NCBI GenBank assembly: GCA_016220165.1
Contig: JACRIE010000040.1
Coordinates: 16,364-80,363 of the forward strand
Source of the DNA: Candidatus Peregrinibacteria bacterium
GTDB taxonomy: Bacteria; Patescibacteriota; Gracilibacteria; UM-FILTER-43-11; JACRIE01
Direction of reading: 5' to 3'
Length of the DNA stretch: 64,000 nucleotides
The position numbers and the translations under genes are program-made. Of this stretch, positions 6,402-58,128 are shown piece by piece (within the stretch, counting starts at the first letter, position 1; every line of letters begins with the position of its first letter). Below the pieces are notes generated by a model. It was not told where the DNA came from. It saw only the letters and a program-made list of their open reading frames with translations, and made no database searches.

Positions 6402-6480
6402 ATACAATTTTTTTATTTTAAAGAAAAGGATTTTTACACGGCTTACCATAACAAATACGTAAATGAAAATCAAACGCCTC

Positions 6481-7773
6481 CTAGAGGTTGAATATCAGAA
6501 AAAAATAAAAAACATATCCGAAAAAAATAATCAAAAATTTACCTAAAAACTGTTTCTCGGGCAGATACTTTTGAAGATAAAAAATAAAGTGACTAAAAAA
6601 TAAAAAAATGACGATATTAATAATGAGGGGTGTCTTCAAAGTCCTGAAAACAAATTCGCGGGGCAGTCCGATCGCTTTTTCCAAAGAAAATGCGGCCAAA
6701 AAAAGATAAATAAGATAAAAAATAAGCAACCAGCCGATAAAACTATCTGCTTCTTCCAGAATATAGGCTCCTTTCTTGCGAAGCTCCCAATCAACTTTCT
6801 GAATAGACTCTTGTAGCTGCGGAAACGCTTTTTTCGCTGATTTTCGCTCTCGCCAATATCTTTTAACTCGATCCAGGAAACGAATATTAACAGTAGGGGT
6901 TCCGGGTGGAGATCCCTCTTTATCAAAATTAAAATACGACTTTTTAAAACGGGATATCGAATCAAAAAGCGACTGACTTAATTGTTTAATATTATTGAGC
7001 TGCCATTTTTTCTGAGTCAGAGCGGCATTTTTTTTAATAAGAGTATTTTGCCCCAAAACATTTAACGCTTGCTGAAAACGTTCACGCGTTTCAGCCGGAG
7101 CAGTCTCCAGCTTGTCCGGAGCAAGAATTAAGCCGTAAATCGTATGACACAGTTGCTCGATATGCTTTAAATTATTGCTTTGCCGGACGCGTTCTAATTC
7201 AGCGAGAGAATTTTTGATTTCTAATTGATGATCCGTGCTGAAAAAATCACTATATTCGTTTAACGCTTCTTTGGTTTTTAAAATAACGCGATCTATTTCT
7301 GCAATCATCTGCTGATCAACCGTTTTTTCTTCTTCCTCAGAAGATTCCTCGGGAAGTGTATTCTTTTTAATCGAAACCTCGCATTGACTGATAAGATCTT
7401 TAAAATGCTCAGCGAAAAATTTTTTTTCTTCTTCGCTCGCGGCTTGAGGATAAAGCGCGTGGAGAGTGAATTGATATTCCCGGATCAATCGCTCGCAGGC
7501 ATTTTCAATGGCAGGAGCTTCAATAGTCCCGTCAATTGGCTTCCCCCGATTGTCCGTGGCTTGGAAGCTGAATGTTTTAATTCCCTGAGATTCTTTTGTC
7601 GCTTTTTGCTTCAGGAGCTCATTCTGATAGTCAGCTTCCGCGATTTCCTGAATAGTCACAATAGAAAGCCCCATCTTATGAAGTTCCTCTTTCGCATTAT
7701 CAAGATCGATCGCCTCCAGGAGGCCATTCAGTTGTTTATTGCTTTTGCTGAGAGCGGTATAGCTGAATTTCAT
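6481..7773 (-). CDS. membrane protein with two N-terminal GspF/PilC-N-like modules
   Basis: MKFSYTALSKSNKQLNGLLEAIDLDNAKEELHKMGLSIVTIQEI and FSFQATDNRGKPIDGTIEAPAIENACERLIREYQF resemble the F.Y.A.d..G....G...A.s...A...L...G segment at the start of T2SS/T4P platform proteins. The C-terminus has 3-4 TM helices. It is the first gene of the minus-strand cluster 7773->516. Confidence 0.65.
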   Translation of the reverse strand: MKFSYTALSKSNKQLNGLLEAIDLDNAKEELHKMGLSIVTIQEIAEADYQNELLKQKATKESQGIKTFSFQATDNRGKPIDGTIEAPAIENACERLIREYQFTLHALYPQAASEEEKKFFAEHFKDLISQCEVSIKKNTLPEESSEEEEKTVDQQMIAEIDRVILKTKEALNEYSDFFSTDHQLEIKNSLAELERVRQSNNLKHIEQLCHTIYGLILAPDKLETAPAETRERFQQALNVLGQNTLIKKNAALTQKKWQLNNIKQLSQSLFDSISRFKKSYFNFDKEGSPPGTPTVNIRFLDRVKRYWRERKSAKKAFPQLQESIQKVDWELRKKGAYILEEADSFIGWLLIFYLIYLFLAAFSLEKAIGLPREFVFRTLKTPLIINIVIFLFFSHFIFYLQKYLPEKQFLGKFLIIFFGYVFYFFLIFNL

Positions 7774-9515: not shown

Positions 9516-12500
9516 TTATTTTTTGTCCTGGGTCGCGGTTTCCATAAAGGTAACCGTTTTTTGACTGATTTCAGGCGTTCCTTCGTTGAAAACTTCAAGG
9601 ATACGAAGGAGTTCGGTATTGGTTTTGCCGCCCATAATGGTGGCCGTGATTTTATCCATATTATCAAAAATCGTATTAAGATTGGCGAATCCTTTCTCTT
9701 TCGAATTTAGCAAACCGTTATTGGTGGCAAAATTATTGTAATGACTATCCAGATAACCGCAGATTCGTTGTACCAACGCATCCGGATCGGAAGTGGCGCT
9801 TCTGGTGTCCCGGATCATCTGAAAAAACGGAGCGTCGATCATGTCCTGAAAAGCCCGTATGCGTTCAAGATTTTTTTGAACATTCCAGTCGCCGTGATTG
9901 GTTTCGCTTGCTTCCCGCGCCGTCGCGTTAAGAATGCTGTTATTCATGCGTTTGTAAATCTGGGTGTCGCGATACGCCACGTTTCCCAGAATACCTTCCA
10001 TCATGGCCATAGAAGCCATATGCCGCGTAAAATTAGCGCGAAAATTCGTTGCATCGGGGTCACGCGCGTTTTCTTCCATGTACTGCAATGTCCCGACGAT
10101 CGTGTTTTCCACGGCTGTATCTTCACGGGCCTGTTCTCCTGATTTTCCGGACAGGAACTGTTTCATGGTGTTGGCGTCCCCCATGCATGAAATGGTGCGC
10201 GCCCAGTCATGATCCCATTTGCGCATAATGACGGCCTTTCGGACGCGCTGGGTCACCATGGAGTCATTCAGAACCTGGGTCCAGTAGAAATTTTTAAACT
10301 CGCCCCGGCATTTCCCGTCTTTGTAGTCCTCGCCGAATTGCTGCTGGCATGTTCTCTTATAATCTTCCCTGGTGAGCGGAGGACGCTTGTTATAAAACCA
10401 CTGGCTGGCCGGCCAGTTATTAAGATACGTGTCGTCCAAAGCCAAAGCGCGATCCTCTTCAAGCAGACCTGAGGCCGTGCCTACCATGAGATAAAACATA
10501 GCCGCTTCCGCGTAGGATTTTCCGTTGAGGATGGCGAATTCGATGGCGGCCTCGTATTCGGCCGGATCCACCTTGCCTCCGGCAACATGCTTTTTATAAA
10601 GCTCTTCCATGCGCCCTGTAAGAACGCTCGCCAATTTTTTGTAGGACTCCTGATATTCCTTCTTATGGCTTTCATAATGGCTTTCATTGGTGCGCTCCAG
10701 CGTGGTGTATTCATCATAATCCCAGATTTCACCCAAAGCCTTGTGGAGCTTGGTGCGGAGCAAATTGGGGGAAAGGGCCATGGAGGTGTCATTCGGATCC
10801 AGAAACACCTTATTCTGGAGGCGATTCAGCACTTTCCATAATTCAGGTTTAGACCAATTGATACGGCCTTTGTCGGCCAGAATCCTCAGGATCGCCTTCA
10901 ATTCATCTTTCTCCGGAGGCAGCGGATTCTCCGCCATACTCACGATTTGCTTTTCCAGATCCCAGGCATCCATATTTTCATACCGCCCCTTCCATTCGTT
11001 CACTTCCTCCTGCTCCGCTTTCTGCATGCGGGCTTTGGATTCCTGGCCCATACTGGTCCCTGCGAACAGCGCGGAGCCCAATTTCGCCGCATGATCCGCC
11101 TTGCGTCGCTTAAAACGGCGTTCCGTGAACTCGAAAAAATCTCTGCCGACCTGGAGGATGTCCTCGACGCACAGAAAGGAGGTTTTAAGCCATAATGCCG
11201 CGAAAGGGTTGAGTATTCCTTTGTCACTGGCGGACGACGCGGATTCCAGCTCCTTCATCACGGTTCCGAACGCGTGTTTTTCAAGAAGCCCGATCCGGCT
11301 TCCAACGGTTTTCCCCAATGCTTTATTTGAAGGATGTTCATCGTATTCTTCATTTATTTTCTCCGTTTCTTCCAGATAGGTAATCATGGTGCTGATCAGC
11401 GCCCCTATTCCGGGGATGCCTCCCGCGAAAGGGGAATGCGATGCCCCGTACAGGGCTTCCTTGAGCCTTTCAAGTTTTTGCCCAAACTCTTTGGCGGAAC
11501 TCGTTCCTTCATCAGTCTCTTTTGCTCCTGTTTCTTTTTCTTCTTCTTCTTCATCCTCTCCTGCGGCCACGGCGCCGGCAATGCTCGCTTTTTCCGAGTC
11601 CGCGATGATCTCCTCCGCCGTGCGCGTGTCGGACGGATTGAAAACTTCAATTCCGCCGATCGCGGAAAAGGCGGTCAGCAAATCGCGGTGCTTAGTATTC
11701 TTGCCCACCGGCATATCCTGCATGGCATAGAGCTCGCTGATGATTTCCCCGTCAGGCCACGTATAGGGCTCTGTGGCGTCCTTTCCCGCCGTGTGCGGCT
11801 TTTTAATGGCACCGATCTCAGCCATAAACCGATCGCGGACTTCCGGCCACTTCTTGTGTCCCAAAACAAGCGCGATGTATTCCCGCCTCTGCTGTTCCGG
11901 CATGCTGTCGAACTCCAGATGACGCATCTCATGGGTCAGATCCGTGCGGAAGGCGCGCGACTCTTCCTGCGTCCGGCTTTCTTCTTCTCCGTCTTTCGGT
12001 TTGCGGATAATGATTTTCCAAACGTGCCCTTTGGTATAAAACACCATGCCGCCATTCGTGTACTGACTATAATCGTCATTAAATTTTTTAAACGGCAAAC
12101 GCTCAACATGATCTTTAAAAAACGGGTCTTTCAGAAATTCATCCGGAGAAGTTTGTGAGTTTTTCAAAACATGGACCAGCCCTTGTACCTTTTGATAGCG
12201 GATATTTTTCTCAAATTCAGGATCTTTCCAGGCGCCGCTCACACGCTCCTCAAAACTTCCCACCGCGTCAAACGTTTTTTTCAGTTGAGCCAATCCGTTC
12301 GTCAGCTCAAGCCGCTGAAGCCGCGTCAGGGCGGCAGGATCGGCCAATAGGGCTTCAAATTCATCGAGCGAACGCTGAGCGCTTCCATCGCGCAACTTTT
12401 GGATGGCTTCGCGCGCCAGCTCGGTGTGTCGCGGCGGATGATCGGGAACAGACACGCCTGTAAGTATCGCGGCTCTACGGGCTTTTTGTGATGGATTCCC

Positions 12501-13586
12501 CAAAGAAGCTTCTAAAAAATTCAAGGTTTCGGGCGTGATGGCGCCGAGCTCTTGCCGCAAAGCAATGATGGACTTTCTGGCTTCGGCAGCTTGTTCGTCT
12601 CCATGAGCGACGGATTCATATAAATCTTTGCCCATATCATGAATATTCCTTTGAATAGTCACGAAGTCTCGAAGAAGTGTCCTATAGGTTTTGGGATCCG
12701 TCCGCGCCTCAGGATCCATAAACTGCCTCTCCATCGCGTCACCCGTTTTTTCAAAACGCCGCTCCGCCTCCCCGCGTTCCTCGGAATCCAGATTTTTAAG
12801 GAATTTTTGCGCCTCGGCATAAAGCGCCTCCTTCTTTTTTCGCAGATAGTCCTGAAGATGTCCGATCTGATACTGACGAATCTCCAGGGTTCGCGCTCGC
12901 TCACGCTCATAATCTTCCGGAATCTCCTCTCGCGCGTTCAAAACCAGATTTTTTCCGACGATCGCCCCTAGTTCTTCCCGAAAACCCCGACGCTGGTTGC
13001 CAACCTCAATGCGATCATTCGAGGGAAGACCGGTCTCCAGGGAATTAATATACGTATTGAGAGAACGAAGCTGATCCATTCGTCCTTCCATATCCTGATC
13101 CGTCGTAATAGGCTGACGAAGGGCTTCCAGCTCATTCAATTCCTGCTGAAACTCCCGCCGTTTTGTCAAATCCAGTTCGCCCTGCAAACGCGCCTGCAGA
13201 CCTACAACCTCGCGGCCGATAATGTCCGTGGGCGCGCCGATATCGGCGCGCGGCTGAAAGGGGATGCCCTTTCCAGCTCTTTTCTGTATTTGCTCATCGA
13301 TTTCCCCAAAATTCGCACCGTTTTCAACAAGATACTCCCGTTCCTTCTGCAATTCTTCCAGAAGGCTCCTCTGCACTTCGGACAATTTCTCCCGCAATGC
13401 CTTCCCCAGGCGTATGTCGCTCTCTCGTTCGATCTGCACAACCAAATCTGCCTCTTCTCTTTCAAGCGAAGCCCTGGCGCCACGAACCATATCAATACCC
13501 CTTTTGGAATCCTTTAAAAACGCGAAAAATTCGCCGAGAAAAGGATTTTTTTCATACAACCCGTGGCAGAAACATTTTAAGTACAT
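9516..13586 (-). CDS. 1356-aa protein of unknown function with a coiled-coil-rich N-terminus, an HExxH motif and an acidic tract
   Basis: Single uninterrupted ORF with no signal peptide. HEMRH occurs in TDLTHEMRHLEFDS, and an acidic run in GEDEEEEEKETGAKETDEG. No P-loop. The conserved leader hairpin sits immediately upstream. Confidence 0.8.
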   Translation of the reverse strand: MYLKCFCHGLYEKNPFLGEFFAFLKDSKRGIDMVRGARASLEREEADLVVQIERESDIRLGKALREKLSEVQRSLLEELQKEREYLVENGANFGEIDEQIQKRAGKGIPFQPRADIGAPTDIIGREVVGLQARLQGELDLTKRREFQQELNELEALRQPITTDQDMEGRMDQLRSLNTYINSLETGLPSNDRIEVGNQRRGFREELGAIVGKNLVLNAREEIPEDYERERARTLEIRQYQIGHLQDYLRKKKEALYAEAQKFLKNLDSEERGEAERRFEKTGDAMERQFMDPEARTDPKTYRTLLRDFVTIQRNIHDMGKDLYESVAHGDEQAAEARKSIIALRQELGAITPETLNFLEASLGNPSQKARRAAILTGVSVPDHPPRHTELAREAIQKLRDGSAQRSLDEFEALLADPAALTRLQRLELTNGLAQLKKTFDAVGSFEERVSGAWKDPEFEKNIRYQKVQGLVHVLKNSQTSPDEFLKDPFFKDHVERLPFKKFNDDYSQYTNGGMVFYTKGHVWKIIIRKPKDGEEESRTQEESRAFRTDLTHEMRHLEFDSMPEQQRREYIALVLGHKKWPEVRDRFMAEIGAIKKPHTAGKDATEPYTWPDGEIISELYAMQDMPVGKNTKHRDLLTAFSAIGGIEVFNPSDTRTAEEIIADSEKASIAGAVAAGEDEEEEEKETGAKETDEGTSSAKEFGQKLERLKEALYGASHSPFAGGIPGIGALISTMITYLEETEKINEEYDEHPSNKALGKTVGSRIGLLEKHAFGTVMKELESASSASDKGILNPFAALWLKTSFLCVEDILQVGRDFFEFTERRFKRRKADHAAKLGSALFAGTSMGQESKARMQKAEQEEVNEWKGRYENMDAWDLEKQIVSMAENPLPPEKDELKAILRILADKGRINWSKPELWKVLNRLQNKVFLDPNDTSMALSPNLLRTKLHKALGEIWDYDEYTTLERTNESHYESHKKEYQESYKKLASVLTGRMEELYKKHVAGGKVDPAEYEAAIEFAILNGKSYAEAAMFYLMVGTASGLLEEDRALALDDTYLNNWPASQWFYNKRPPLTREDYKRTCQQQFGEDYKDGKCRGEFKNFYWTQVLNDSMVTQRVRKAVIMRKWDHDWARTISCMGDANTMKQFLSGKSGEQAREDTAVENTIVGTLQYMEENARDPDATNFRANFTRHMASMAMMEGILGNVAYRDTQIYKRMNNSILNATAREASETNHGDWNVQKNLERIRAFQDMIDAPFFQMIRDTRSATSDPDALVQRICGYLDSHYNNFATNNGLLNSKEKGFANLNTIFDNMDKITATIMGGKTNTELLRILEVFNEGTPEISQKTVTFMETATQDKK

Positions 13587-27251: not shown

Positions 27252-27274
27252 AAATAGATTTAATCTATCTTTTG

Positions 27275-27688
27275 ATGGTACATAAAATTATTGCAGGATC
27301 GGCGCTCCTCTTTGTACTTATCTTGGTTGTGCCGGCTTTTTCATTTGCCCAGGATACGGTTTCTCCGTTAAATGACAGCGATTTCACATTCGATTTGAAC
27401 GCGATCACTCATCAAAAAATCAAACAGGATCGCTGGATCGATCAGGGCGTCAATTACGTGATTCAGCGCGTCATCACGCTGACCGCCCAAACAATCGGCG
27501 TGATCTCGATTTTAGGATTCAGCGCGGGCGGACTTTTGATTCTCATGTCCGCCGGCAGCGACGAATTAATCACCAAAGGAAAAAATTTAATGAAATACTC
27601 CCTGCTGGGCCTCGTTTTTGTGCTGTCCGCCTATCTGCTTGTCATGACTATCCAAACACTCGTAACGAGTATCTTTAAAGGTTTTTAA
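27275..27688 (+). CDS. TrbC/VirB2-like (T4SS-type) mini-pilin, paralogue 1
   Basis: Signal peptide (AGSALLFVLILVVPAFSFAQ) and a C-terminal helix-loop-helix: ISILGFSAGGLLILMSAGSDELITKGKNLMKYSLLGLVFVLSAYLLV. ATG at 27275; the track uses the TTG at 27272. Confidence 0.65.
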   Translation: MVHKIIAGSALLFVLILVVPAFSFAQDTVSPLNDSDFTFDLNAITHQKIKQDRWIDQGVNYVIQRVITLTAQTIGVISILGFSAGGLLILMSAGSDELITKGKNLMKYSLLGLVFVLSAYLLVMTIQTLVTSIFKGF

Positions 27689-27695
27689 CCGTATC

Positions 27696-28319
27696 TTGAA
27701 ACGTTATCTTTTTTCAATCACCGCTTTTTTATTCCTGATGATCGGGCTGGTTGGCCCTGTCAGCTTAACTTATGCACTTGGCGCCCCCGAACAGGGCGAA
27801 TTGAAAGTGGCTGATACGGTCAGCGGATGTGAAGGAATTATCTACGGAGGAGGAAATAAAAAAAATTCGATGCCCATCAATTGCCTTTTTCTGGATGAAC
27901 CCATCGGCGGCAAGCCGGGTTATGATTTATTTTCAAGGGAGTGCAAAAAGGCCGACAAAAATAAGCAGCCGGCCGAACCCTCCCAGTGCGAATATAAACT
28001 ATGGACCGGAGGCTCCATTGACCCGGGCAAAGGCCCTTTTCAGGCCATACTTTCCTACACGCCGGGCAAAGAGGCGCAGGGGTCGCTTCAGCTTTTGTAT
28101 AACTACGTGGGGCTGATCTACAAATATCTTTCCGGCGTCATTGTCGGCGTCACGGTCTTGATGACCGTGGTCGGGGGAATCCAGATCATCACGTCGCATG
28201 GATCCGAAGGAAAAACCGCCGGCACGGACCGCATCCTCCATTCCTTGCTGGGCATGGTACTGTGGTTTTTGGCGTCCCTGATCCTTTACACGATTAACCC
28301 GACCTTCTTCCGGTTTTAA
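27696..28319 (+). CDS. TrbC/VirB2-like mini-pilin, paralogue 2, with a Cys-containing insert
   Basis: TTG start, signal peptide, 4-Cys middle region, and C-terminus VLMTVVGGIQIITSHGSEGKTAGTDRILHSLLGMVLWFLASLILY. Confidence 0.6.
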   Translation: MKRYLFSITAFLFLMIGLVGPVSLTYALGAPEQGELKVADTVSGCEGIIYGGGNKKNSMPINCLFLDEPIGGKPGYDLFSRECKKADKNKQPAEPSQCEYKLWTGGSIDPGKGPFQAILSYTPGKEAQGSLQLLYNYVGLIYKYLSGVIVGVTVLMTVVGGIQIITSHGSEGKTAGTDRILHSLLGMVLWFLASLILYTINPTFFRF

Positions 28320-28322
28320 AAA

Positions 28323-28724
28323 ATGGTGATTATGAAAAAATATTACATGGTTCTCATCGGCGTTTTAATTAATTTTTCTCAGGCATTAGCGCTTGCGACA
28401 AATGAGACTCAAATCACCGAACCGTTGGGCGGCGACACCCTTTTGGGAAAAACATTGTTTCAGAAAGACGTTGGAACTGGCATTCAGGGTAGTTTTATTT
28501 TTAGTAAACTTATTCCTTTTTTAATCAGATATGGCATTCAGCTCGCGGTGGCGCTCGCCGTCATCGCGATCATCGCGGGAGGTTTCCAATTCATCATCGC
28601 GTTCGGAAATACCGAAAAGCGCGAAGCAGCTCAAAAAACCATTATTTATGCCGTTATCGGCCTAGTCATCGCGTTAACCGCGTATGGAATCGTCAAAATT
28701 ATCACCGGCATTAATCTCGTCTAA
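28323..28724 (+). CDS. TrbC/VirB2-like mini-pilin, paralogue 3
   Basis: Signal peptide and AIIAGGFQFIIAFGNTEKREAAQKTIIYAVIGLVIALTAYGIVKII. Confidence 0.65.
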   Translation: MVIMKKYYMVLIGVLINFSQALALATNETQITEPLGGDTLLGKTLFQKDVGTGIQGSFIFSKLIPFLIRYGIQLAVALAVIAIIAGGFQFIIAFGNTEKREAAQKTIIYAVIGLVIALTAYGIVKIITGINLV

Positions 28725-29351
28725 ATGAGCCTCTTCATTTCTTTAAAAAAAGGCGTTCCATTGTTCACTCTCTTTGTTCTTTTCGTTATTTTACTATCCC
28801 CTGGACGACTACTGGCGGACCGCACACCGCGCGATATCATGAAAGACGAGCTGGCTCGAATCAGCCAGACGATCGACAGGACTGATCTGGACGACACCAT
28901 TAAGATAGAAAACGACAAAACTCAAAAGCAGATCATCGGGGAACTTCTGGACATCGCTGAAAACAAAGTTAATGACGATCCAACTAAGACGAGTGACGAT
29001 GACGCGCGATCGGCGATTCAGGCCGTCCAGCAGGCGTTAGTCAATCCGCATCTATTTAAAAATGCGATAAATGATAAAAAGGAAGTCACCCAAGTCGCAT
29101 TGGATGTCCTGAAAGGCGACATTTTCGAGGATCTGGTGCCTCAACTCATCAAACTCGCCTTCAAAGTGGCCTGGGTCGTCATCTTTATCTCGTTTTTGGT
29201 CTCCGGCATCCTCATGATCCTGTCCATGGACAGCGAAGACCGTCTGGTTAAGGCCAAAGCCATTCTCTATTATTCGTTGATCGGCTTTACAATGATAACG
29301 CTGGCGTTCGCCATCGTGAAGGCCCTAACCAATATCAATTTTTTCAGTTAA
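28725..29351 (+). CDS. TrbC/VirB2-like mini-pilin, paralogue 4, with an extended N-terminal domain
   Basis: Starts on the base after the previous stop. Signal peptide, charged helical region, and C-terminus FLVSGILMILSMDSEDRLVKAKAILYYSLIGFTMITLAFAIV. Confidence 0.6.
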   Translation: MSLFISLKKGVPLFTLFVLFVILLSPGRLLADRTPRDIMKDELARISQTIDRTDLDDTIKIENDKTQKQIIGELLDIAENKVNDDPTKTSDDDARSAIQAVQQALVNPHLFKNAINDKKEVTQVALDVLKGDIFEDLVPQLIKLAFKVAWVVIFISFLVSGILMILSMDSEDRLVKAKAILYYSLIGFTMITLAFAIVKALTNINFFS

Positions 29352-29753
29352 ATGAACCAGAAAAAAAACATCATCAATGGTATTTTCGCTGCATTTCTTT
29401 CGTTTTTTCTAAAAGCTCACAAAGCGGCTGCTTTTGGGATCAACGATTTCCGGAGCGAGCTGTTCAAGCCCATCAATTTGACGGGCATCAAAAGCACGAC
29501 GCTCGGCGCCGCGGCCAAAATCACAGTAGCCGCCAATTTTTTTATCAATTTAATCCTTTACGCTTCGGGTGGACTTGCGGTATTGTTGCTCATCATCGGA
29601 GCCATCCAATACATTTCCAGTTTCGGCCAACAGGAGGGAATGGACAGAGGTAAAAAAACGATCCAATACGCTTTGCTGGGCCTCCTCGCAGTTATCACGG
29701 CCTATTTTATAGTCACTAATCTCATTAAAATTCTTTACAGTACCGCAGGATAA
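29352..29753 (+). CDS. TrbC/VirB2-like mini-pilin, paralogue 5
   Basis: Starts on the base after the previous stop. LLIIGAIQYISSFGQQEGMDRGKKTIQYALLGLLAVITAYFIV. Confidence 0.65.
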   Translation: MNQKKNIINGIFAAFLSFFLKAHKAAAFGINDFRSELFKPINLTGIKSTTLGAAAKITVAANFFINLILYASGGLAVLLLIIGAIQYISSFGQQEGMDRGKKTIQYALLGLLAVITAYFIVTNLIKILYSTAG

Positions 29754-29784: not shown

Positions 29785-29808
29785 CCAAAATTCCAAAATT
29801 CCAAAATT
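29785..29808 (+). repeat. three tandem CCAAAATT octamers abutting a -35 box
   Basis: ccaaaatt ccaaaatt ccaaaatt runs directly into TTGACA (29808-29813). Confidence 0.8.
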
Positions 29809-29835
29809 TGACATTTAAATTATTACTGATAAAAT
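29808..29835 (+). promoter_or_regulatory. strong sigma70-type promoter (TTGACA-16-TAAAAT) for the riboswitch-controlled operon
   Basis: TTGACA at 29808-29813 and TAAAAT at 29830-29835. Confidence 0.6.
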
Positions 29836-29848
29836 AAAGTCAAATTCA

Positions 29849-29986
29849 TTATCAAGAGTCCGCTGAGGGAACGGCCCTATGAAGCGGCAGCAACCGCCTT
29901 CTGAGGCGCCATGAACCGCCTGGTTCAGGGCCCTACAAGATGGCAAGGTGCTAACTCCGTCCTGCCTTAAGCGGGAAAGATAAGTT
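29849..29986 (+). promoter_or_regulatory. SAM-I (S-box) riboswitch aptamer
   Basis: TTATCAAGAG-tccgc-TGAGGGAacGGCCCtATGAAgcggCaGCAACC...(long P3 insert)...GGTGCTAActCC-gtcctgccttaagcggga-AAGATAAG. All conserved S-box blocks are present, and P1 is TTATC/GATAA. Confidence 0.85.
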
Positions 29987-29992
29987 AACAGT

Positions 29993-30026
29993 CTTTCTTC
30001 CTTCAGGAGGCAAGATTTTTTTATTT
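29993..30026 (+). terminator. riboswitch expression-platform terminator
   Basis: Imperfect stem tctttcttcc-ttca-ggaggcaaga followed by tttttttatttt, ending 9 nt before the ATG at 30035. Confidence 0.55.
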
Positions 30027-30034
30027 TACAACCT

Positions 30035-30874
30035 ATGCCCCCTCTCGATTTATCGCGTCTAGAATGTCCTTCATTCGCTTTTCGCCCTGATGAGTGGACG
30101 GAAGCCTTTCAGACAGGCTTACAAAAAGATGGCCTGACAGGACAGGAAGTATTTGAAGTAGGCGTCGGAACAGGCGTCAATGCACACTTTGCGCTTAGTC
30201 GGCTTCAGGTAACCAGATTTTTTGGCGCGGATCTTGACGAACGGCTACTTCCTGTCGCGAGACGAAACGTTGACCGCGCATTGTCGCCGGAGCTTGCCGC
30301 GCGCTTTTCTGCGATCGAAGGATCCACTGATCTTCTGACTTCGGAAGCGGCTATTGCCATTGTCCGCGAAAGAGTCCGGGTCGTGATCGCCTGCATCCCG
30401 CAAGCGCTTAGACCGAAAGGCGTCCCCGAACATCCTGATGACATAGCTCATTATTACCCCGAGGAACCTTTCAGGAAATATCCTTTTAATCGATTCGCTT
30501 TAGGACTCAACGAAGCTCTGCTCCGACAATTTTATGAGTTAATTCAACAGGCTCAAGATCCCTCTTCAAAATACATTATCCTCAATTTAGGCGGGCGTGT
30601 CGGAAGAAAAGTTTTACTCGATCTTTTTAGGACAAATGGGCTGGTGCCGCACATCCTCCATGAACAAATGATTCCCCAATGCCCGACAACTCATCTCGAT
30701 TTTTTCGTTAAATTGGAACGCACGGGAACTCCCTGCGAATTTTTTTCCGATGCCGAAGGACAGCTCCCCATTACAGCGGCAACGGCCGAAGCTCGACGTC
30801 TGGAAGAACAAAGTGTCTTTCATAAAATTTATGTAATAAAAGGAACACTGAAAACGCAATCTGACATTTCATAA
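30035..30874 (+). CDS. SAM-dependent methyltransferase resembling methionine S-methyltransferase (plant MMT N-terminal domain / bacterial MmtN)
   Basis: FRPDEW..AF..GL......VFEVGVGTGVN (motif I), FGADLD, then RVVIACIPQAL.P, FALGLNE and ILNLGGRVG. I recall these blocks from MMT/MmtN as CIPQIL.P, FGLGLIA and IFNMGGRPG. The comparison is from memory only, with no alignment run. Confidence 0.55.
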   Translation: MPPLDLSRLECPSFAFRPDEWTEAFQTGLQKDGLTGQEVFEVGVGTGVNAHFALSRLQVTRFFGADLDERLLPVARRNVDRALSPELAARFSAIEGSTDLLTSEAAIAIVRERVRVVIACIPQALRPKGVPEHPDDIAHYYPEEPFRKYPFNRFALGLNEALLRQFYELIQQAQDPSSKYIILNLGGRVGRKVLLDLFRTNGLVPHILHEQMIPQCPTTHLDFFVKLERTGTPCEFFSDAEGQLPITAATAEARRLEEQSVFHKIYVIKGTLKTQSDIS

Positions 30875-30886
30875 TTTCTTTAATTT

Positions 30887-31777
30887 ATGGCCTCATTCAC
30901 TGATTTTATCGCTTCCAAAAAATATGTCATTTTAAGCGGCGCTATGGGCACTGAATTGCAACGCCGTGGGTACGAAACGCGTCTGCCGCTATGGTCTGCC
31001 CAAGCTAACCTTGATGCTCCTGAACTCGTCAGACAAATTCATGAAGACTACATTAAAGCGGGCACGGACCTCCTCACGACCAACACCTTTCGTACTCAGC
31101 CCTATACATTCCAAAAAGTGAGGCGACGCCCACTCGCCTCTGAAGCGACTAAAAACGCGGTACAGGCAATTCTCCGGGCCAAAAAAAGCGCTGACAGGGA
31201 TGTGTTCGCGGGAGGTGAATTGGCTCCTTTGGAAGATTGTTATTTACCAGATCTTATTCCGGAAGATTCTATCCTGGAAGAAGAACATTTTTCTCAGGCG
31301 AAGTTGCTCGCGTCGCTGGGAGTTGATTTTCTTTTTTGCGAAACGATTAACTCAATTCGGGAAGCCTTAATAATGATACGCGCGGCAAAGTCAACAGGGC
31401 TTCCTTTTATGATCAGCTTTTTAGTCAATCCTCAAGGCGATCTTTTAAACGGAGAATCATTAAAAAAAGTTATCGATCGCGTGGCAGTCTTCCATCCGGT
31501 AGGCATCCTCCTTAATTGCCGTCCCATTGACATTATAAATCAGGGAATCGATTCTCTATGCCGGTATTATTCCGGAGTGAAGGGAGTTTATCCTAATGGC
31601 ATAGGTAAGCCTGCTGACGATCTCGGTTGGACGTTCTCAGGTGAAGGAGATAATATTGTAAAATTTGTGGAATTCTGTGAGCGTTGGTATAAGCAGGGAG
31701 TCAAAATTCTAGGCGGCTGCTGTGGAACTACTCCCGAGTACATTAAGGCTTTGAGTAAACGAATGGCAATGCTTTAA
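30887..31777 (+). CDS. mmuM: homocysteine S-methyltransferase
   Basis: ILSGAMGTELQRRGY...LPLWSAQANL..PELVRQIHEDYIKAGTDLLTTNTFRT and the C-terminal zinc-ligand pair ILGGCCGTTPEYI. Confidence 0.85.
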   Translation: MASFTDFIASKKYVILSGAMGTELQRRGYETRLPLWSAQANLDAPELVRQIHEDYIKAGTDLLTTNTFRTQPYTFQKVRRRPLASEATKNAVQAILRAKKSADRDVFAGGELAPLEDCYLPDLIPEDSILEEEHFSQAKLLASLGVDFLFCETINSIREALIMIRAAKSTGLPFMISFLVNPQGDLLNGESLKKVIDRVAVFHPVGILLNCRPIDIINQGIDSLCRYYSGVKGVYPNGIGKPADDLGWTFSGEGDNIVKFVEFCERWYKQGVKILGGCCGTTPEYIKALSKRMAML

Positions 31778-31832
31778 AGATTTACAGGCGATGGCGCAAC
31801 CGTTACAATCGTTGTGCTTTATCTCTTTCCTT

Positions 31833-33347
31833 ATGCCTTCCGAAAAATCGTTTTACGTCACCACGGCCATCGCGTATGTGAATGGCGATCCGCACATCGG
31901 TTTTGCCATGGAATGCATCCAGGCCGACGCCATCGCGCGCTACAAACGATTGATGGGTTTTGACGTTCATTTCTTAACCGGCACGGATGAGAATGGAACC
32001 AAAAATTACGAAAGCGCTCAAAAAGAGGGGATTCCGCCTCAGGAATTCGTGGATCGGCAATCTAAAAAATTCCAAGGACTCAAAACGCTTCTCAATCTCA
32101 GCAATGATGATTTTATCCGCACCACGGACCAAAAACGTCACTGGCCGGCATGCCAAAAACTTTGGAAAAAAATGGTTGAGAAAGGAGACATCTATAAAAA
32201 AGAATATGAAGGTCGCTATTGCACAGGCTGCGAACGTTTTATGACTGAACGCGACCTTGTGAACGGAAAATGTGTTCTTCACAAACGCGCCCCGGAGATT
32301 CTCAAAGAGGAAAACTATTTTTTTAAACTCTCACGTTATTCAAAACAGATCATAAAACTCTTAGAATCCAACACGGTTTGTATCGTTCCGCAATTTCGCA
32401 AAAACGAAATCCTTAATTTGACGAAAGAAGGTCTCCATGACGTAAGCTTTTCGCGCCCCTGCAACGTGCTTCCGTGGGGCGTTCCGGTTCCCGGCGACGA
32501 CACTCAGATGATGTATGTCTGGTGCGACGCGCTTACAAATTACATTTCAGCCATTGATTATACCGGAGAGGGAAGTCTATTTAAAAAATTCTGGCCCGCG
32601 GACGTCCATGTGATTGGCAAAGACATTGTTCGCTTTCATGCGGGCATATGGATTGGAATGCTTCTTTCGGCTGAAATAGCGCTTCCAAAGGCTGAATTCA
32701 TTCATGGATTTATCACACATAATGGCGAAAAGATGAGTAAAAGCCTGGGAAATGTAGTAGACCCGCAAGAAGTAATCGCTGACTACGGTACTGATGCATT
32801 ACGCTATTATCTCTTAAAAGAAATTCCTCTCGGGAATGATGGTGATTTTACATATGAATTGTTCAAGGCAAGGCATAACGCTGATTTAGCCAACAATCTT
32901 GGGAATCTCGTGAATCGAGTCCATACATTAGTTTCGAAGGGCGGCTTCACGGATTTTACGGTTGGAAATGAAGCTAATCCCTGCAGAACCAAAGTGGAGG
33001 AGACCTGGGGGAAATATGAAAAAACCATGGACGTTTATTCACTTCACGAAGGCATTGAAACCGTGTGGGCCTTGGTTGACTTTGCGAATCAGGAAATGGA
33101 GCGGACCAAGCCATGGGCTCTCAAAAACCAGCCGGAAGAGCAAAAAAAGGTTCTTTGCAGCCAACTCGAGATGATCCGTCATATTTCGGTTTTGCTTAGC
33201 CCTTTCCTACCAAAAACATCACAAATCATCCGGGGACAGATCGGCCTTTCTCCTGAAATGAACCGCGAGACACAACAAAAATGGGGGGCGCTTACTTCGT
33301 GGAAGAAGCTGGGGGAACGAGCTATCCTATTCCAGCGCAGAGAATAA
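31833..33347 (+). CDS. metG: methionine--tRNA ligase
   Basis: FYVTTAIAYVNGDPHIGF (HIGH-type motif), CTGCERF...C zinc knuckle, KMSKSLGN (KMSKS motif) and the anticodon-binding helices. Started at MPSEKSF; the ORF track start 31791 is possible. Confidence 0.9.
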   Translation: MPSEKSFYVTTAIAYVNGDPHIGFAMECIQADAIARYKRLMGFDVHFLTGTDENGTKNYESAQKEGIPPQEFVDRQSKKFQGLKTLLNLSNDDFIRTTDQKRHWPACQKLWKKMVEKGDIYKKEYEGRYCTGCERFMTERDLVNGKCVLHKRAPEILKEENYFFKLSRYSKQIIKLLESNTVCIVPQFRKNEILNLTKEGLHDVSFSRPCNVLPWGVPVPGDDTQMMYVWCDALTNYISAIDYTGEGSLFKKFWPADVHVIGKDIVRFHAGIWIGMLLSAEIALPKAEFIHGFITHNGEKMSKSLGNVVDPQEVIADYGTDALRYYLLKEIPLGNDGDFTYELFKARHNADLANNLGNLVNRVHTLVSKGGFTDFTVGNEANPCRTKVEETWGKYEKTMDVYSLHEGIETVWALVDFANQEMERTKPWALKNQPEEQKKVLCSQLEMIRHISVLLSPFLPKTSQIIRGQIGLSPEMNRETQQKWGALTSWKKLGERAILFQRRE

Positions 33348-39348: not shown

Positions 39349-40605
39349 TTAATTTATTCCAGGAATTGGAAAGCGAGAGCAGAGCGTTTTCACTGCTCCA
39401 TGAAGCTCTCTCAGACGCTTCTCATTTCCTATATTTTTGACCGCCTCAATCATCCAGCCGACAATCCTTTCCATTTCCTTTTCTTTCATGCCTCGCGTGG
39501 TAATAGCAGGAGTTCCCAAACGAACACCCGATGGATCCATGGGGGAACGAGTATCGTCCGCAATCATATTCTTATTCAGCGTGATACCAATCAAATCCAA
39601 TACTTTTTCCACTTCTTGCCCTGATTTTCCGAAAGAACGAACCGTATCCATGAGCATCATATGATTATCCGTTCCGTTAGTGATAAGTTTGCATCCTTTT
39701 TTCATCAAGGTATCTGCCATCGTTTTCGCGTTGCGAATAATTTGAGCAGCGTATTCTTTAAATTCTGGCTTCATTGCTTCGCCTAGGGCAACGGCTTTGG
39801 CCGCCGTATTATTCATATGAGGACCACCTTGAAAACCTGGGAACACGGCTTTGTCAATTTTTTGAGCGAGTTCTTTTTTGCATAAAATCATTCCGCCTCG
39901 TGGTCCGCGTAAGGTCTTATGAGTAGTAGTCGTGACTACGTCAAAACCAAAATCAACCGGATTGATAAGCTGTTTCCCCGCGATAAGGCCTGCGATATGA
40001 GCCATATCCATCATGGCATAAGCCCCCACTTCATCCGCGATCTCACGAAATTTGGCATAATTAAGTTCTCGGGGATAAGCGGAAAAACCTGCCAAAATAA
40101 GTTTTGGTTTTACTTCTTTCGCCGTTCGTCGCAACTCTTCAAAATCGATTTCGCCCGTTTCCACATCTTTCATTTTATAACGGACAAAACGATAAATTTT
40201 CGCCATAAAAGTGACGGGGTGCCCATGAGTCAAATGCCCTCCATGAGACAAGTCCATTCCCATGATCGTATCCCCGGGTTCCAAAAGCGCTGAATAAACA
40301 GCGATATTTGCCGGAGCTCCAGAATGAGGCTGAACATTAACATGCTCCGCATTGAATAACTTTTTAGCGCGTTCAATCGCCAATGATTCAACGACGTCCG
40401 TGTACTCCTGTCCTCCATAATATCGTTTGCCAGGATAGCCTTCTGAATATTTATTAGTGAATACGCTTCCAAGCGCCTCCAAAACAGCCGGAGAAACATA
40501 ATTTTCCGAAGCAATGAGTTCCATTCCATCATTCTGTCGCTTGAATTCCCCTTGAAGAGCGGAATAAACTTCAGAATCCTCTTTTTGGATATAGTTTGAT
40601 GACAT
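39349..40605 (-). CDS. glyA: serine hydroxymethyltransferase
   Basis: ELIASENYVS, NKYSEGYPGKRYYGG, HLTHG and VTTTTHKTLRGPRGGMIL (PLP lysine). Confidence 0.95.
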   Translation of the reverse strand: MSSNYIQKEDSEVYSALQGEFKRQNDGMELIASENYVSPAVLEALGSVFTNKYSEGYPGKRYYGGQEYTDVVESLAIERAKKLFNAEHVNVQPHSGAPANIAVYSALLEPGDTIMGMDLSHGGHLTHGHPVTFMAKIYRFVRYKMKDVETGEIDFEELRRTAKEVKPKLILAGFSAYPRELNYAKFREIADEVGAYAMMDMAHIAGLIAGKQLINPVDFGFDVVTTTTHKTLRGPRGGMILCKKELAQKIDKAVFPGFQGGPHMNNTAAKAVALGEAMKPEFKEYAAQIIRNAKTMADTLMKKGCKLITNGTDNHMMLMDTVRSFGKSGQEVEKVLDLIGITLNKNMIADDTRSPMDPSGVRLGTPAITTRGMKEKEMERIVGWMIEAVKNIGNEKRLRELHGAVKTLCSRFPIPGIN

Positions 40606-40633
40606 TCTGAAATTTTATGAAATAAAATCTATT

Positions 40634-41218
40634 TTAGGGCTTAGATGACACAAAATAAATTCTTTGATCTGTAATAACAACATTCATAGCCACATCATAC
40701 GGATCATGAGGAATAGAATCAACCACTTGCTCAAAAAATGCTAATCCGATTTTCAATGTCTTCGAATATCTTTTTAAAAAATGGTCGTAAAAACCTTTAC
40801 CAAAACCAAGACGGTTGCCTTTCACATCAAAAGCCACTCCGGGAACAATAATTAAATCCAATGGCCCCGAATCCCCTTCTTCAACCCCCATCTCATTCTT
40901 CTGGAACTTAATCGGTTCTGGAATTCCAGCGTATCCTGAATGCAAATAAGGTTCGCCATAAAATCGCGCTGGCTCTATAAAGCCTTTTACCATCTGAGGA
41001 AGAAATAGATTCTTTGTTTTATAATAATTATTCAAAAGGACAATCGTATCCACTTCACTCGAAAAAGAATGGTAAAAAAGAATATTCTTTGCCTCTTGAA
41101 AATAAGACAATTGCTCTAATGATTTTGCGATGAGGCGGCTTTTGGCCTGACGTATTCCTTCGGAAAGATTATTCCTAAATTTAACGGCTTTTTGTCGAAT
41201 TTTTTCTTTCTGATTCAC
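40634..41218 (-). CDS. 5-formyltetrahydrofolate cyclo-ligase
   Basis: LDLIIVPGVAFDVKGNRLGFGKGFYDHFL is the family signature. It lies next to glyA. Confidence 0.85.
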   Translation of the reverse strand: MNQKEKIRQKAVKFRNNLSEGIRQAKSRLIAKSLEQLSYFQEAKNILFYHSFSSEVDTIVLLNNYYKTKNLFLPQMVKGFIEPARFYGEPYLHSGYAGIPEPIKFQKNEMGVEEGDSGPLDLIIVPGVAFDVKGNRLGFGKGFYDHFLKRYSKTLKIGLAFFEQVVDSIPHDPYDVAMNVVITDQRIYFVSSKP

Positions 41219-53655: not shown

Positions 53656-54930
53656 TCATTGTTTCGGAAGATAAAAACTGGATGGCGCTTCCTCATCCGG
53701 AGTCGATTCTTCTTCGGACGTATTCTCGTCAGCGTTTTCCGTATCCTCCCCGGATGCGCCGCCGGAACAAACCTTGTCTTCCAGCCATTCCAGCTCACTC
53801 TGGAACGCGCTGATCATAGTCGCTTTGGATTCTTTATTTTTGGTGTCCAGCACACGCCAGAGAGAAACGTTGTCCCGAATCTTGAGGGGCGACCGGCTGA
53901 CGAGATCGGCGCAATGGGCGCGCGTCGTCGAATTGCACACCATGGTTTCACATGTCTTTTTAATGTCGGCAATCATCTGCGGAGCGTATCTAGTGCGGAT
54001 CGCGCCCGGCAGAAGACGCCATGAATCCCACCGCCCGAGCCCTTCCAGCATCTGCGTAACAGGATTGCCTGTCATAGTGACGGGCGCCGGCGGTTCCTGA
54101 TCGAGAGGACGGTCGGAACCTCCGTACATGTCCTCGAAACGGTCGTTCAGATAGCCGATTTCTGAGTTCAGGATGCTGAAAATCTCGGTTCGGCCTTTTT
54201 TCAGTCTGGAATTCAGGGATGCCGCCTTCTGCAATTCCTTCACTTCCTCGCAGGCAAACGTGGCCCGCGCCCGTACGCTCCGTTGGGTCGGAACGTCATC
54301 CGGACCGCGTACTTCCAGTTTCTCGCAATAAGAATTAATAAGATTCATTATCATGGGGATCCCCACCCGCCGATCGGATCGGATAACACGGGTTTTAAAA
54401 GCCCCTTCTTTCAGCCAATTTACCCAATCCAGAATTTCCTCGATCGGATTGAATAAAGCTCTTTCTTTACGTTCCGGGTAGCGGGTGACATTGTATTGAT
54501 CGCTGGGAAGATCCGGCTCGGCCACCTCTTCATTTTCATCGCCGCCGTATAGCGCTTGGAATTGGGAAGACATCGACTCCAGATCCTCTGACGCCTTTTC
54601 CTTAAAATTGTCCAGCGCTCCCTCTGTGTCCCCGCGGGAAGCCCGAGTCGCCTCGTTCAGCGCCGATTTGATGGCTTTATATTCGTCGGGGCAGCCCTTC
54701 ATGTCGTTGAGTTCCAGCTCTTTGCAGTTTTTAAGAATCTGCGGAAGCAAAGCGCGCGCCTGTCCAACCGACGTCAGGGCGCTCACTTTTTCTAAAAAGG
54801 CTTCAAACGGATCGCTCAGCACTCTCAATGAATCCGTTGAGACAGGGGCCGGAGCCGCATTCGACAGCAAGGGTAAAAGCAAAAACGCCCCAACGACTGC
54901 CAATAAACGTGGAAACCATTTTATTTTCAT
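53656..54930 (-). CDS. secreted protein of unknown function built from three related modules
   Basis: Started at MKIKWFPRLLAVVGAFLLLPLLSNAAPAP (signal peptide). Recurrent module ends: SSQFQALYGGDENEE, LNDRFEDMYGGSDRPLD and FQSELEWLEDKVCSGGASGED. Acidic C-terminus. Confidence 0.65.
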   Translation of the reverse strand: MKIKWFPRLLAVVGAFLLLPLLSNAAPAPVSTDSLRVLSDPFEAFLEKVSALTSVGQARALLPQILKNCKELELNDMKGCPDEYKAIKSALNEATRASRGDTEGALDNFKEKASEDLESMSSQFQALYGGDENEEVAEPDLPSDQYNVTRYPERKERALFNPIEEILDWVNWLKEGAFKTRVIRSDRRVGIPMIMNLINSYCEKLEVRGPDDVPTQRSVRARATFACEEVKELQKAASLNSRLKKGRTEIFSILNSEIGYLNDRFEDMYGGSDRPLDQEPPAPVTMTGNPVTQMLEGLGRWDSWRLLPGAIRTRYAPQMIADIKKTCETMVCNSTTRAHCADLVSRSPLKIRDNVSLWRVLDTKNKESKATMISAFQSELEWLEDKVCSGGASGEDTENADENTSEEESTPDEEAPSSFYLPKQ

Positions 54931-55016
54931 AAACTCAAAGTTAAGATTAATTTTTTTAAATTTAACACAAGATTCTACCCCGCGCAAATGGATTGTACGG
55001 TTCACACCGTAAACCC

Positions 55017-55045
55017 TTGAGTTTTAGGCTTATTTTTGCTATAAT
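55017..55045 (+). promoter_or_regulatory. sigma70-type promoter (TTGAGT-17-TGcTATAAT) for the 55140-60141 operon
   Basis: The -35 is at 55017-55022, TGc at 55037-55039 and TATAAT at 55040-55045. Its architecture and spacer resemble 13672-13700 on the other strand. Confidence 0.6.
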
Positions 55046-55051
55046 AATCAG

Positions 55052-55139
55052 ATAAATCAAGTGACGAGTGACGAGAAAAAACTTGCAACTCGTTACTCGT
55101 CTCTATTAGTTCGTCACTGGTCACTCGTCACTAAGTAAA
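55052..55139 (+). promoter_or_regulatory. structured 5' leader, copy B of the duplicated promoter-leader module
   Basis: agtgacgagtgacgag-aaaaaacttgcaa-ctcgttactcgtctctattagttcgtcactggtcactcgtcactaagtaaa-ATG. Hairpin 55063-55075/55089-55101 (13 bp including one G.U) competes with the perfect 13-bp pairing 55060-55072/55120-55132. Confidence 0.7.
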
Positions 55140-55640
55140 ATGGATATGAACGATCTCGAAATTGCAGAAAATCAGGATCCGGTGCTACTCGCCTGGCAGG
55201 CGCCGGAATTCATCAGCCATCCACGGGGGAAATTATGGTACACAGTCGTGGGCCTTCTGACCGCTGGAATCGTTGTTTATTCGCTCATAACGCAATCGGT
55301 CACGACAGCCATTGTGTTTTTGCTGCTGGCCACGGTTTACGTGCTGACCCGTAATCAGAAGCCAAGGACAATCGATATCAAAATCACGCAGCTGGGAATT
55401 TGGGTTCATCGGACGTTCTATCCCTACAACATGATCCGTTCCTTTTGGGTGGTATACACTCCGCCGTTTGTTCAGACGCTCAACCTTGAAATCGCCAAAA
55501 AATCCCTTCCGCACGTCGCGATTCAGCTCAACGGTCAGGAACCCGTTCCGATCCATGAGATTTTAAGCAAAAAAATCCCTGAAGCCGAAGGGCGCGAGGA
55601 AAGCCTCATGGAAATCGTCACCAGACTTTTCCGACTTTAA
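55140..55640 (+). CDS. small two-TM membrane protein, unknown function
   Basis: 166 aa. W.APEF..H.R...WY is followed by two TM helices (VVGLLTAGIVVYSLI and AIVFLLLATVYVL) and a beta-rich C-terminal domain. Confidence 0.7.
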   Translation: MDMNDLEIAENQDPVLLAWQAPEFISHPRGKLWYTVVGLLTAGIVVYSLITQSVTTAIVFLLLATVYVLTRNQKPRTIDIKITQLGIWVHRTFYPYNMIRSFWVVYTPPFVQTLNLEIAKKSLPHVAIQLNGQEPVPIHEILSKKIPEAEGREESLMEIVTRLFRL

Positions 55641-55654
55641 CAGTTTAATTCATT

Positions 55655-57853: not shown

Positions 57854-57864
57854 AAAATCGATCC

Positions 57865-58125
57865 GTGTCCATCGAACAAACCGACATCATTGACCGCCAG
57901 GCGAACCAGGCCCAAATCAACCGGCACCGCGAAGAAGAGGAAACGGACTCCCAGCAATCCGCCTCAGGCGGGCGGCAGCGGAAACAACGACAGTCCGACC
58001 CCTCCCCTGCCTCGGGCATGGCCAAAGCCGCCATCGGCGGCATGAAAAAAAAATTACTGATCGCGGTCGGGGCCACCGGCGGCGTCGCGGGAATAGGCTC
58101 CCTGATTAATTATCTTATCGGCTAG
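57865..58125 (+). CDS. small tail-anchored membrane protein
   Basis: GTG start, a charged N-terminus, and a C-terminal TM helix (LLIAVGATGGVAGIGSLINYLIG). Tightly packed between its neighbours (11-nt and 3-nt gaps). Confidence 0.45.
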   Translation: MSIEQTDIIDRQANQAQINRHREEEETDSQQSASGGRQRKQRQSDPSPASGMAKAAIGGMKKKLLIAVGATGGVAGIGSLINYLIG

Positions 58126-58128
58126 CCC

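Follow-up and report, generated by a model that had tools for sequence, protein, structure and literature searches.

In Escherichia coli, the mmuPM operon encodes a permease for S-methylmethionine (SMM) together with MmuM, a homocysteine S-methyltransferase (HMT); it is under MetJ control and is expressed in methionine limitation. In the SMM cycle of plants an HMT is combined with a methionine S-methyltransferase (MMT), and the cycle is tied to control of S-adenosylmethionine (SAM) and to phloem transport of SMM. Closest to the locus described here are the Group II MmtN enzymes, which were defined in candidate phyla radiation (CPR) bacteria, a Woesearchaeon and a rotifer, with seven enzymes found to be active (Peng et al. 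2022, Nat Commun 13:2947, PMC9135737). In that study mmtN was often located beside an HMT gene, and two of the organisms, the Woesearchaeon and ‘a Peregrinibacterium’, had a methionyl-tRNA synthetase (MetRS) gene next to it. An SMM cycle controlling Met and SAM levels in the manner of plants was predicted for organisms with Group II MmtN, and charging of SMM by the MetRS was raised as a speculation (PMC9135737). We have analysed a 64,000-nt stretch of a Candidatus Peregrinibacteria genome (contig JACRIE010000040.1, positions 16,364 to 80,363; called the window throughout), in which genes for an MmtN-type enzyme (mmtN), an HMT (hmt) and a MetRS (metG) follow a predicted SAM-I (S-box) riboswitch. 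We are moderately confident that these genes form a SAM-repressed operon of a groundwater, Peregrinibacteria-like CPR bacterium, and that the operon answers methionine shortage in a way that favours translation, as opposed to burning surplus SAM.

The window operon shares the enzyme family, the order mmtN-HMT and the groundwater habitat with the Group II MmtN-HMT(-MetRS) clusters of CPR bacteria and DPANN archaea (PMC9135737). It differs from them in its predicted repression by SAM, where the paper proposes plant-like SAM/Met homeostasis, and its MetRS looks canonical. The gene cluster and the pathway interpretation are already published there; regulation by SAM or Met shortage is what is added here. 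That paper nowhere uses the word ‘riboswitch’ and makes no mention of riboswitch or attenuator control, and the open-access literature yielded no paper on riboswitches in Peregrinibacteria and none that connects a SAM riboswitch to MmtN or SMM in CPR bacteria. The plant cycle comprises the same two reactions, with the same net conversion of SAM to Met and adenosine once S-adenosylhomocysteine (SAH) is hydrolysed, but the plant MMT has a mass of ~115 kDa and carries an aminotransferase-like domain at its C-terminus (PMC9135737), whereas the window protein has 279 residues and its operon would be triggered by low SAM. Relative to mmuPM, the window HMT is homologous to MmuM, but no permease accompanies it and the SMM-forming enzyme is encoded in the same operon. 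The leader shares its aptamer class, its OFF logic and the competition of terminator and antiterminator through the P1 3′ strand with the S-box regulon of Firmicutes, from which it differs in the genes controlled, the CPR host and a 38-nt insertion in P3. To our knowledge no S-box leader has been described ahead of a methionine S-methyltransferase, and none was found in the open-access literature either.

The SAM-I leader and the genes behind it

The leader matches the Rfam SAM-I family RF00162 with 69.4 bits (gathering score 44.4, E 3.8e-14). The match spans positions 1–108 of the covariance model, i.e. the full four-helix model without truncation, and it is the sole riboswitch match across the window. 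A promoter-like site ends 10 nt 5′ of the aptamer (Table 1). Downstream, the aptamer is followed by an intrinsic terminator that ends 12 nt before the mmtN ATG and whose U run is succeeded by an A and a further UUUU. In the predicted antiterminator helix, the 5′ arm of the terminator hairpin is paired with the 3′ side of P4 and the first part of the P1 3′ strand, an alternative pairing that competes with P1. The minimum-energy fold of the whole leader contains P1 and the terminator (−62.8 kcal/mol; the terminator hairpin by itself, −10.1 kcal/mol). When the P1 5′ strand is blocked, the minimum-energy fold instead uses the antiterminator helix at −62.7 kcal/mol. Two mutually exclusive and nearly isoenergetic predicted folds of this kind correspond to a classical transcriptional OFF-switch design and, at the level of computation, the leader is shown to be a SAM-I OFF switch ahead of mmtN-hmt-metG.

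The three genes that follow are separated by gaps of 12–13 nt, hmt starting 12 nt past mmtN, and this spacing counts in favour of an operon. In Pfam and NCBIfam the gene 1 product finds only generic methyltransferase matches. Among solved structures, its best match is MmtN of Roseovarius indicus (7VVV, also 7VVW and 7VVX; E 1.2e-50 over residues 11–271), the next PDB match after MmtN having an E of 2.5e-3. Its closest named homologue, with 46% identity at 98% coverage, is OGJ51966.1 from Candidatus Peregrinibacteria RIFOXYB2_FULL_32_7, which has been synthesised and was active as a methionine S-methyltransferase in vitro (Peng et al. 2022, PMC9135737).

The alignment extends to residues of known role. 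The blocks ACIPQALRP, FALGLNEA, ILNLGGRVG and CEFF..PITAATA are aligned with conserved MmtN blocks, and the family-invariant residues are present, among them the family-specific motifs HYYP, GLGLNE, CIPQ and P150/R164. The GxGxG motif is kept as G43-V-G45-T-G47, and the SAM-contacting residues D69, L102 and C121 of 7VVV correspond to D66, L100 and C120; a further SAM contact of the R. indicus enzyme, Ser101, is Asp99 in gene 1 and Asn in the active OGJ51966.1. The MmtN-specific gating loop (His158-Tyr162) aligns with H139-Y140-Y141-P142, H139-Y140-Y141 being equivalent to H158-Y160 of 7VVV, and the trimer ion pocket formed by Pro169 and Arg183 of 7VVV is represented by P150 and R164. Assignment of gene 1 to the MmtN family of methionine S-methyltransferases is supported by these correspondences. 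A role as an rRNA or protein methyltransferase of the PrmA or PrmC type was ruled out, the scores falling far under the respective cut-offs, and the GC content of the gene gives no compositional signal of recent horizontal transfer.

Gene 2 matches Pfam PF02574 with 180.7 bits (gathering score 22, E 7e-53) and E. coli MmuM (5DML) with E 3.6e-24, the zinc-site motifs LNC and GGCC being aligned. It falls under the cut-off of the NCBIfam MmuM equivalog NF007020 (150.9 against 215 bits). By homology gene 2 is a homocysteine S-methyltransferase whose preference between SMM and SAM as methyl donor is not readable from its sequence. Gene 3 scores 477.8 bits against TIGR00398 (cut-off 336.35) and matches the Brucella MetRS 4DLP with E 2.6e-126. 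All of its alignments start only at residue 17–18, the listed ORF start adding 14–17 residues foreign to the homologues, and for this reason the true metG start is probably Met15, the ATG at 31833. The KMSKS motif and the PF19303 anticodon domain are present, and the HIGH motif reads HIGF, with its last His replaced by Phe (window 31791-31880). Overall the protein looks like a canonical MetRS, a close homologue of ordinary bacterial enzymes; beyond the HIGF variant, its sequence lends nothing to the idea of an unusual, SMM-charging MetRS speculated upon in PMC9135737. A possible internal metG promoter could provide basal expression independent of the riboswitch.

An earlier note, made from the letters of this stretch alone, had read an S-box aptamer and terminator ahead of an MmtN-like methyltransferase gene with the blocks quoted above, an HMT gene and metG. 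All of these assignments stand. The note had also proposed weighing gene 1 against other methyltransferase families, and in that comparison MmtN is far the best match and the CIPQ and GLGL blocks are conserved.

Table 1. Coordinates of the operon features in the window and of the Met leaders (described below) at the loci of the three closest MmtN relatives with upstream sequence.
Feature	Sequence	Position	Strand	Basis or leader sequence
Promoter-like site, TTGACA-16 nt-TAAAAT with TG extension	Window	29808-29835	+	Sigma-70-like, 11/12 matches; consensus match only
SAM-I (S-box) aptamer	Window	29846-29986	+	RF00162
Antiterminator helix, GGGAAAGAU (29973-29981) with GUCUUUCUU (29991-29999)	Window	29973-29999	+	Predicted fold
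Intrinsic terminator, interrupted 11-bp stem (29990-30017) and 7-U run (30016-30022)	Window	29990-30022	+	Hairpin and U run
mmtN, putative Group II MmtN-type SAM:methionine S-methyltransferase, 279 aa	Window	30035-30874	+	Homology to 7VVV, OGJ51966.1
hmt, putative homocysteine S-methyltransferase, 296 aa	Window	30887-31777	+	PF02574, MmuM 5DML
Possible internal metG promoter, TTTACA-17-TACAAT	Window	31781-31809	+	10/12 matches; consensus match only, uncertain
metG, putative methionine-tRNA ligase, 518 aa as listed	Window	31791-33347	+	TIGR00398, 4DLP
Met leader (MmtN 57% identity)	L051	238-412		MNLKFQTNRLSSAPSSMMMGMMMRLRRSRGDLR
Met leader (MmtN 50% identity)	L053	61-240		MKIAMSNLLLNNMMSMIMRPRRRPAADIMLFE
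Met leader (MmtN 46% identity)	L002	3821-3985		MNLARQQIKFLINKSMMQMMMRFSMWKL

Leaders and gene order at related loci

We gathered 62 related loci, two of them from a scan of genome contigs and 48 from a scan of metagenomes; individual loci are cited below by number (L001 and so on). The CPR-type set comprises 22 distinct mmtN loci, 20 of which are mmtN-HMT modules or contigs cut just past mmtN. In the CPR-type clades an HMT gene lies directly 3′ of mmtN wherever the contig is long enough, with L037 and L055 as exceptions, whereas at the Group I-type loci (~20, marine and soil) mmtN is never directly followed by HMT. Beyond HMT the loci differ from one another, with unrelated genes (OMP decarboxylase, DNA glycosylase, GNAT and others), and adjacency to MetRS was seen among the collected loci in the window only. 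The conserved module is thus mmtN-HMT.

SAM-I aptamers precede the module at five of the 22 CPR-type loci: the window, L044, L030, L031 and L062. At the Rfam gathering threshold, a search of 53 loci returned SAM-I in L044 only (72.1 bits), where the aptamer is followed by a terminator with the same antiterminator design as in the window; L030 and L031 came up only in a less stringent search, and L062 only with a model of our own. The matches in L030 and L031 (40.0 and 37.9 bits, E 6e-6 and 2.5e-5) lie under the Rfam cut-off and are weaker calls, although their position and orientation are correct and terminators lie 3′ of them. Also a weaker call is the variant aptamer of L062, which likewise has a terminator 3′ of it. 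It was detected by a model trained on the aptamers of the other four loci (34.8 bits, E ~6e-5) and gives no Rfam match at E<0.1; it was the only match outside the training set for that model in 300 kb. Aligned with MAFFT and folded with RNAalifold, four aptamers yielded no consensus helices beyond P1, P4 and part of P2, and this result was not used as evidence.

The three closest relatives of the window MmtN with upstream sequence (L051, L053 and L002) have no aptamer and carry in its place a leader ORF with a run of Met codons (Table 1). Such a Met leader consists of a short Met-run ORF, a hairpin preceded by a stretch complementary to its 5′ arm, and a U run just 5′ of mmtN. The same anatomy recurs in L032, L033, L034, L035, L036, L038, L039, L059 (two in tandem) and L061, giving Met leaders at 12 of the 22 loci; the contigs of L033 and L051 end before any HMT could show. 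Three further loci (L001, L052 and L057) have HMT and no clear leader element at mmtN, and the remaining two (L037 and L055) have neither HMT nor an element. Neither SAM-I aptamers nor Met leaders occur at the ~20 Group I loci. Each of the two CPR clades of a rough neighbour-joining tree contains both types of sensor, and when four further mmtN-HMT loci were fetched afterwards as a test, three carried a Met-run leader or a SAM-I-like aptamer.

The runs contain 3–7 Met codons, as in SSMMMGMMMR. The intervening codons differ (G, S, Q, A, E, C, Y, T) but the frame is preserved, which indicates selection on translation and not on an RNA motif. Small ORFs with at least four Met in eight codons number 19 in 744 kb (both strands counted), and 10 of the 19 lie within ~300 nt 5′ of mmtN on the same strand. 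In duplex-energy z-scores, the complementarity between the end of the ORF and the terminator arm is clearly above shuffled sequences in seven cases (L035, L039a, L001b, L038, L034, L051 and L039b). The z-scores, which use crude arm definitions, are not significant in L002, L053, L032, L033 and L036, the last of these being borderline. With z-scores this uneven, the case for attenuation is carried mainly by the enrichment of Met-run ORFs and by their position.

The relatives' leaders, as distinct from that of the window, match the leader-peptide attenuators of trp, his, leu, thr, ilv and phe in anatomy (an ORF of regulatory codons, a segment at or after the ORF end that can pair with the terminator arm, and a U run), but differ from them in using AUG as the regulatory codon. 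Their appearance is that of ribosome-mediated attenuators specific for Met. They have no match among Rfam families, and no description of a Met-specific attenuator or Met leader peptide was found in the open-access literature. Possibly a new observation, on this sampling, is that RNA elements sensing SAM or Met control nearly all mmtN-HMT modules of CPR bacteria.

Several loci carry additional elements. In L001 (Candidatus Peribacteria), where mmtN is without a leader, a second, divergent HMT-like gene (6027-7115; PF02574, E 9e-19) lies 3′ of mmtN-HMT and has its own Met-run leader (NLMTMMMEMMMPSERLG) and strong terminator (−20.6 kcal/mol) at 5820-5936. In L039, a further Met-run leader with a terminator (2450-2512) stands before a 65-aa Cys-rich, zinc-ribbon-like ORF (2684-2881), just 5′ of the mmtN leader, which hints at a wider Met-attenuator regulon. 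In L061, metK (1009-2139) lies immediately 5′ of the unit formed by the Met leader (2277-2348), mmtN and HMT, so that at least the L061 organism makes its own SAM; metK was seen beside the module in this locus only. A conserved SMM transporter beside the module was sought among the loci and not found. The only major facilitator superfamily (MFS) gene is that of L002, the operon of a Rifle Peregrinibacterium, where it overlaps the end of HMT (5800-7119); it is a candidate carrier of SMM or Met and is unconserved elsewhere.

Surroundings of the operon

The nearest relatives of the window are Peregrinibacteria and Peribacteria, and its content is typical of CPR genomes, with small membrane proteins resembling type IV secretion system (T4SS) pilins, a sortase, SLH-domain proteins and housekeeping genes. 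Among public sequencing runs, the window sequence was present in one groundwater metagenome DNA run only and in no RNA run. Pfam annotation of ~40 further ORFs detected no metK, ahcY, pfs, luxS, metE, metH or metF in the 64 kb, in agreement with the earlier note, which saw no genes for de novo synthesis of Met or SAM here; an SMM permease is likewise absent from the window. Genes for serine hydroxymethyltransferase and 5-formyltetrahydrofolate cyclo-ligase (39349-41218) indicate that folate one-carbon metabolism exists in the organism, and no folate-dependent methionine synthase was seen in the window.

Directly 5′ of the riboswitch, five small predicted membrane proteins are encoded in a row (27272-29753) that resembles a CPR-typical pilin array. 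Two of the four that were scanned match PF18895 (T4SS pilin), the ORF at 28323-28724 not being among them. Large ORFs of 1055, 1356, 449, 732 and 670 aa (2263-5430, 9516-13586 and 53656-60141) have no Pfam match at E<1e-5, and the sole tRNA gene in the window is an ordinary tRNA-Ser (CGA) at 62168-62259.

Role of the operon

In the mechanism that we favour, SAM acts as a proxy for methionine sufficiency, as it does in S-box logic generally. With SAM bound, P1 would close, the terminator would form and transcription would stop before mmtN. With SAM scarce, the 5′ arm of the terminator would be taken up in pairing with the 3′ side of P4/P1, and all three genes would be transcribed. From homology, MmtN would then convert SAM and Met into SMM and SAH, HMT would convert SMM and homocysteine into two Met, and MetRS would charge tRNA-Met. 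Stoichiometrically, and with breakdown of SAH, the net outcome would be SAM to Met plus adenosine, a transfer of the Met skeleton from the SAM pool to free Met; methionine equivalents would be gained only if SMM came from outside. Such a transfer makes sense when charging of Met-tRNA is limiting, which matches the signal that the Met-codon attenuators would read. The presence of those attenuators on the same two-gene module in relatives indicates the same physiological trigger, and the co-transcribed MetRS of the window also fits a response to Met shortage. An operon that is off at high SAM is, conversely, a poor fit with plant-like dissipation of surplus SAM. The most likely role is that Met is returned from SAM to translation, or that imported SMM is used.

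Several considerations weigh against this reading. MmtN consumes SAM, so its induction at low SAM is not homeostatic for SAM. The Group I MmtN of R. indicus binds SAM weakly (Kd 0.8 mM), and with such an affinity the forward flux at low SAM could be small. Neither a cycle-closing SAH hydrolase (or Pfs/LuxS) nor MetK is encoded within the 64 kb. Three residues that bind Met in the Group I enzyme, Glu127, Arg132 and Glu250, are unconserved in gene 1, where Glu127 is replaced by Arg126 and where Arg132 and Glu250 fall in insertions exclusive to Group I enzymes; the active OGJ51966.1 has the same pattern at these positions, and the three residues are dispensable for catalysis. Finally, SAM binding and termination by the leader are folding predictions, and the enzyme functions are assigned to the window organism from homology.

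The published alternative is a plant-style SMM cycle for SAM homeostasis, in which MmtN and HMT would form a futile cycle that limits SAM and buffers the Met:SAM ratio (Peng et al. 2022). The same two enzymes define the plant cycle, and this role is the published prediction for organisms with Group II MmtN (PMC9135737). A device for removing surplus SAM should nevertheless be on at high SAM, and the window operon is predicted to be off; at 12 related loci, moreover, the module would be induced by ribosome stalling at Met codons, i.e. by Met shortage. We regard SAM homeostasis as a distinctly unlikely role. The earlier note had taken genes 1 and 2 to form the SMM cycle, and of this proposal the two enzyme assignments survive, while a SAM-repressed operon is unlike a plant-style, SAM-limiting role; a possible cycle in this organism is suggested by gene content, with MMT and HMT both present and ahcY, pfs, luxS and metK not found in the 64 kb. 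The note's view of the cycle as a plant pathway, with MmtN otherwise known from producers of dimethylsulfoniopropionate, is outdated, Group II MmtN and an SMM cycle in CPR bacteria having been reported (PMC9135737). A different possibility is that the genes serve to utilise imported SMM under SAM or Met shortage, HMT making two Met and MmtN running in reverse (SMM + SAH to SAM + Met) in an ATP-free reaction that would also remove inhibitory SAH. The E. coli mmuPM operon is a precedent for the scavenging of SMM, and a scavenging operon would fit both types of sensor, being on at low SAM or at low Met-tRNA. Methyl transfer from one sulfonium to another should, on chemical reasoning, be near thermoneutral, and the weak affinity of MmtN for SAM and the MFS gene after HMT in L002 point the same way. 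However, no transporter is conserved beside the module, which is followed by different, unrelated genes from locus to locus, the forward reaction was observed for the CPR enzymes by Peng et al. (PMC9135737), and no report of a reverse MMT reaction was found in the open-access literature. This role is unlikely, but we would keep it in view.

The two other alternatives question the part played by mmtN itself. Were gene 1 to methylate another target (a thioether, a thiol, a protein or RNA), its link to HMT and MetRS would be no more than membership of a shared S-box regulon; its generic Pfam matches, its weak similarity to PrmA and PrmC and the three unconserved Met-contacting residues would be in keeping with this. 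We give the idea very little credence given the gap in E between MmtN and the next solved methyltransferase, the family-specific residues, the activity of the 46%-identical OGJ51966.1 with its shared residue pattern, and the near-constant adjacency, among CPR-type loci, to a gene for HMT, the substrate of which is SMM. Alternatively, metG and hmt might be the main targets of the riboswitch, in a generic S-box regulon that answers Met shortage, with mmtN a passenger and HMT using SAM directly. Enzymes of the HMT family are described as accepting SAM besides SMM (PMC5979542), and metG is part of the operon in the window alone, but at 17 loci the conserved unit under SAM or Met control is mmtN-HMT, which always begins with mmtN and lacks metG, and we judge the passenger role of mmtN quite improbable.

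Extended from the window to its relatives, the Met-shortage reading becomes a broader proposal, on which we are evenly balanced: that mmtN-HMT of CPR bacteria is a Met-starvation regulon in which SAM-I riboswitches and undescribed Met-codon attenuators have repeatedly replaced each other as the sensor. Such a regulon would reclaim Met from SAM, or would run MmtN backwards on imported SMM, with SAM rebuilt from SAH without ATP. A module induced at low SAM or Met would not dissipate SAM as in plants.

As a further SAM-I riboswitch on an already known gene cluster, the window hardly extends the range of known pathways, and its value lies in regulation. The Met-codon attenuators, if confirmed, would make methionine one of the few amino acids known to be sensed through ribosome-mediated attenuation. 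RNA control of mmtN-HMT is the first evidence on when CPR bacteria, a lineage in which gene regulation is almost unstudied, would use MmtN and HMT, namely in shortage of Met or SAM. Control in which SAM turns the genes off, as predicted here, contradicts the plant ‘SAM homeostasis’ model in its most direct application to these organisms and makes the function of the module testable.

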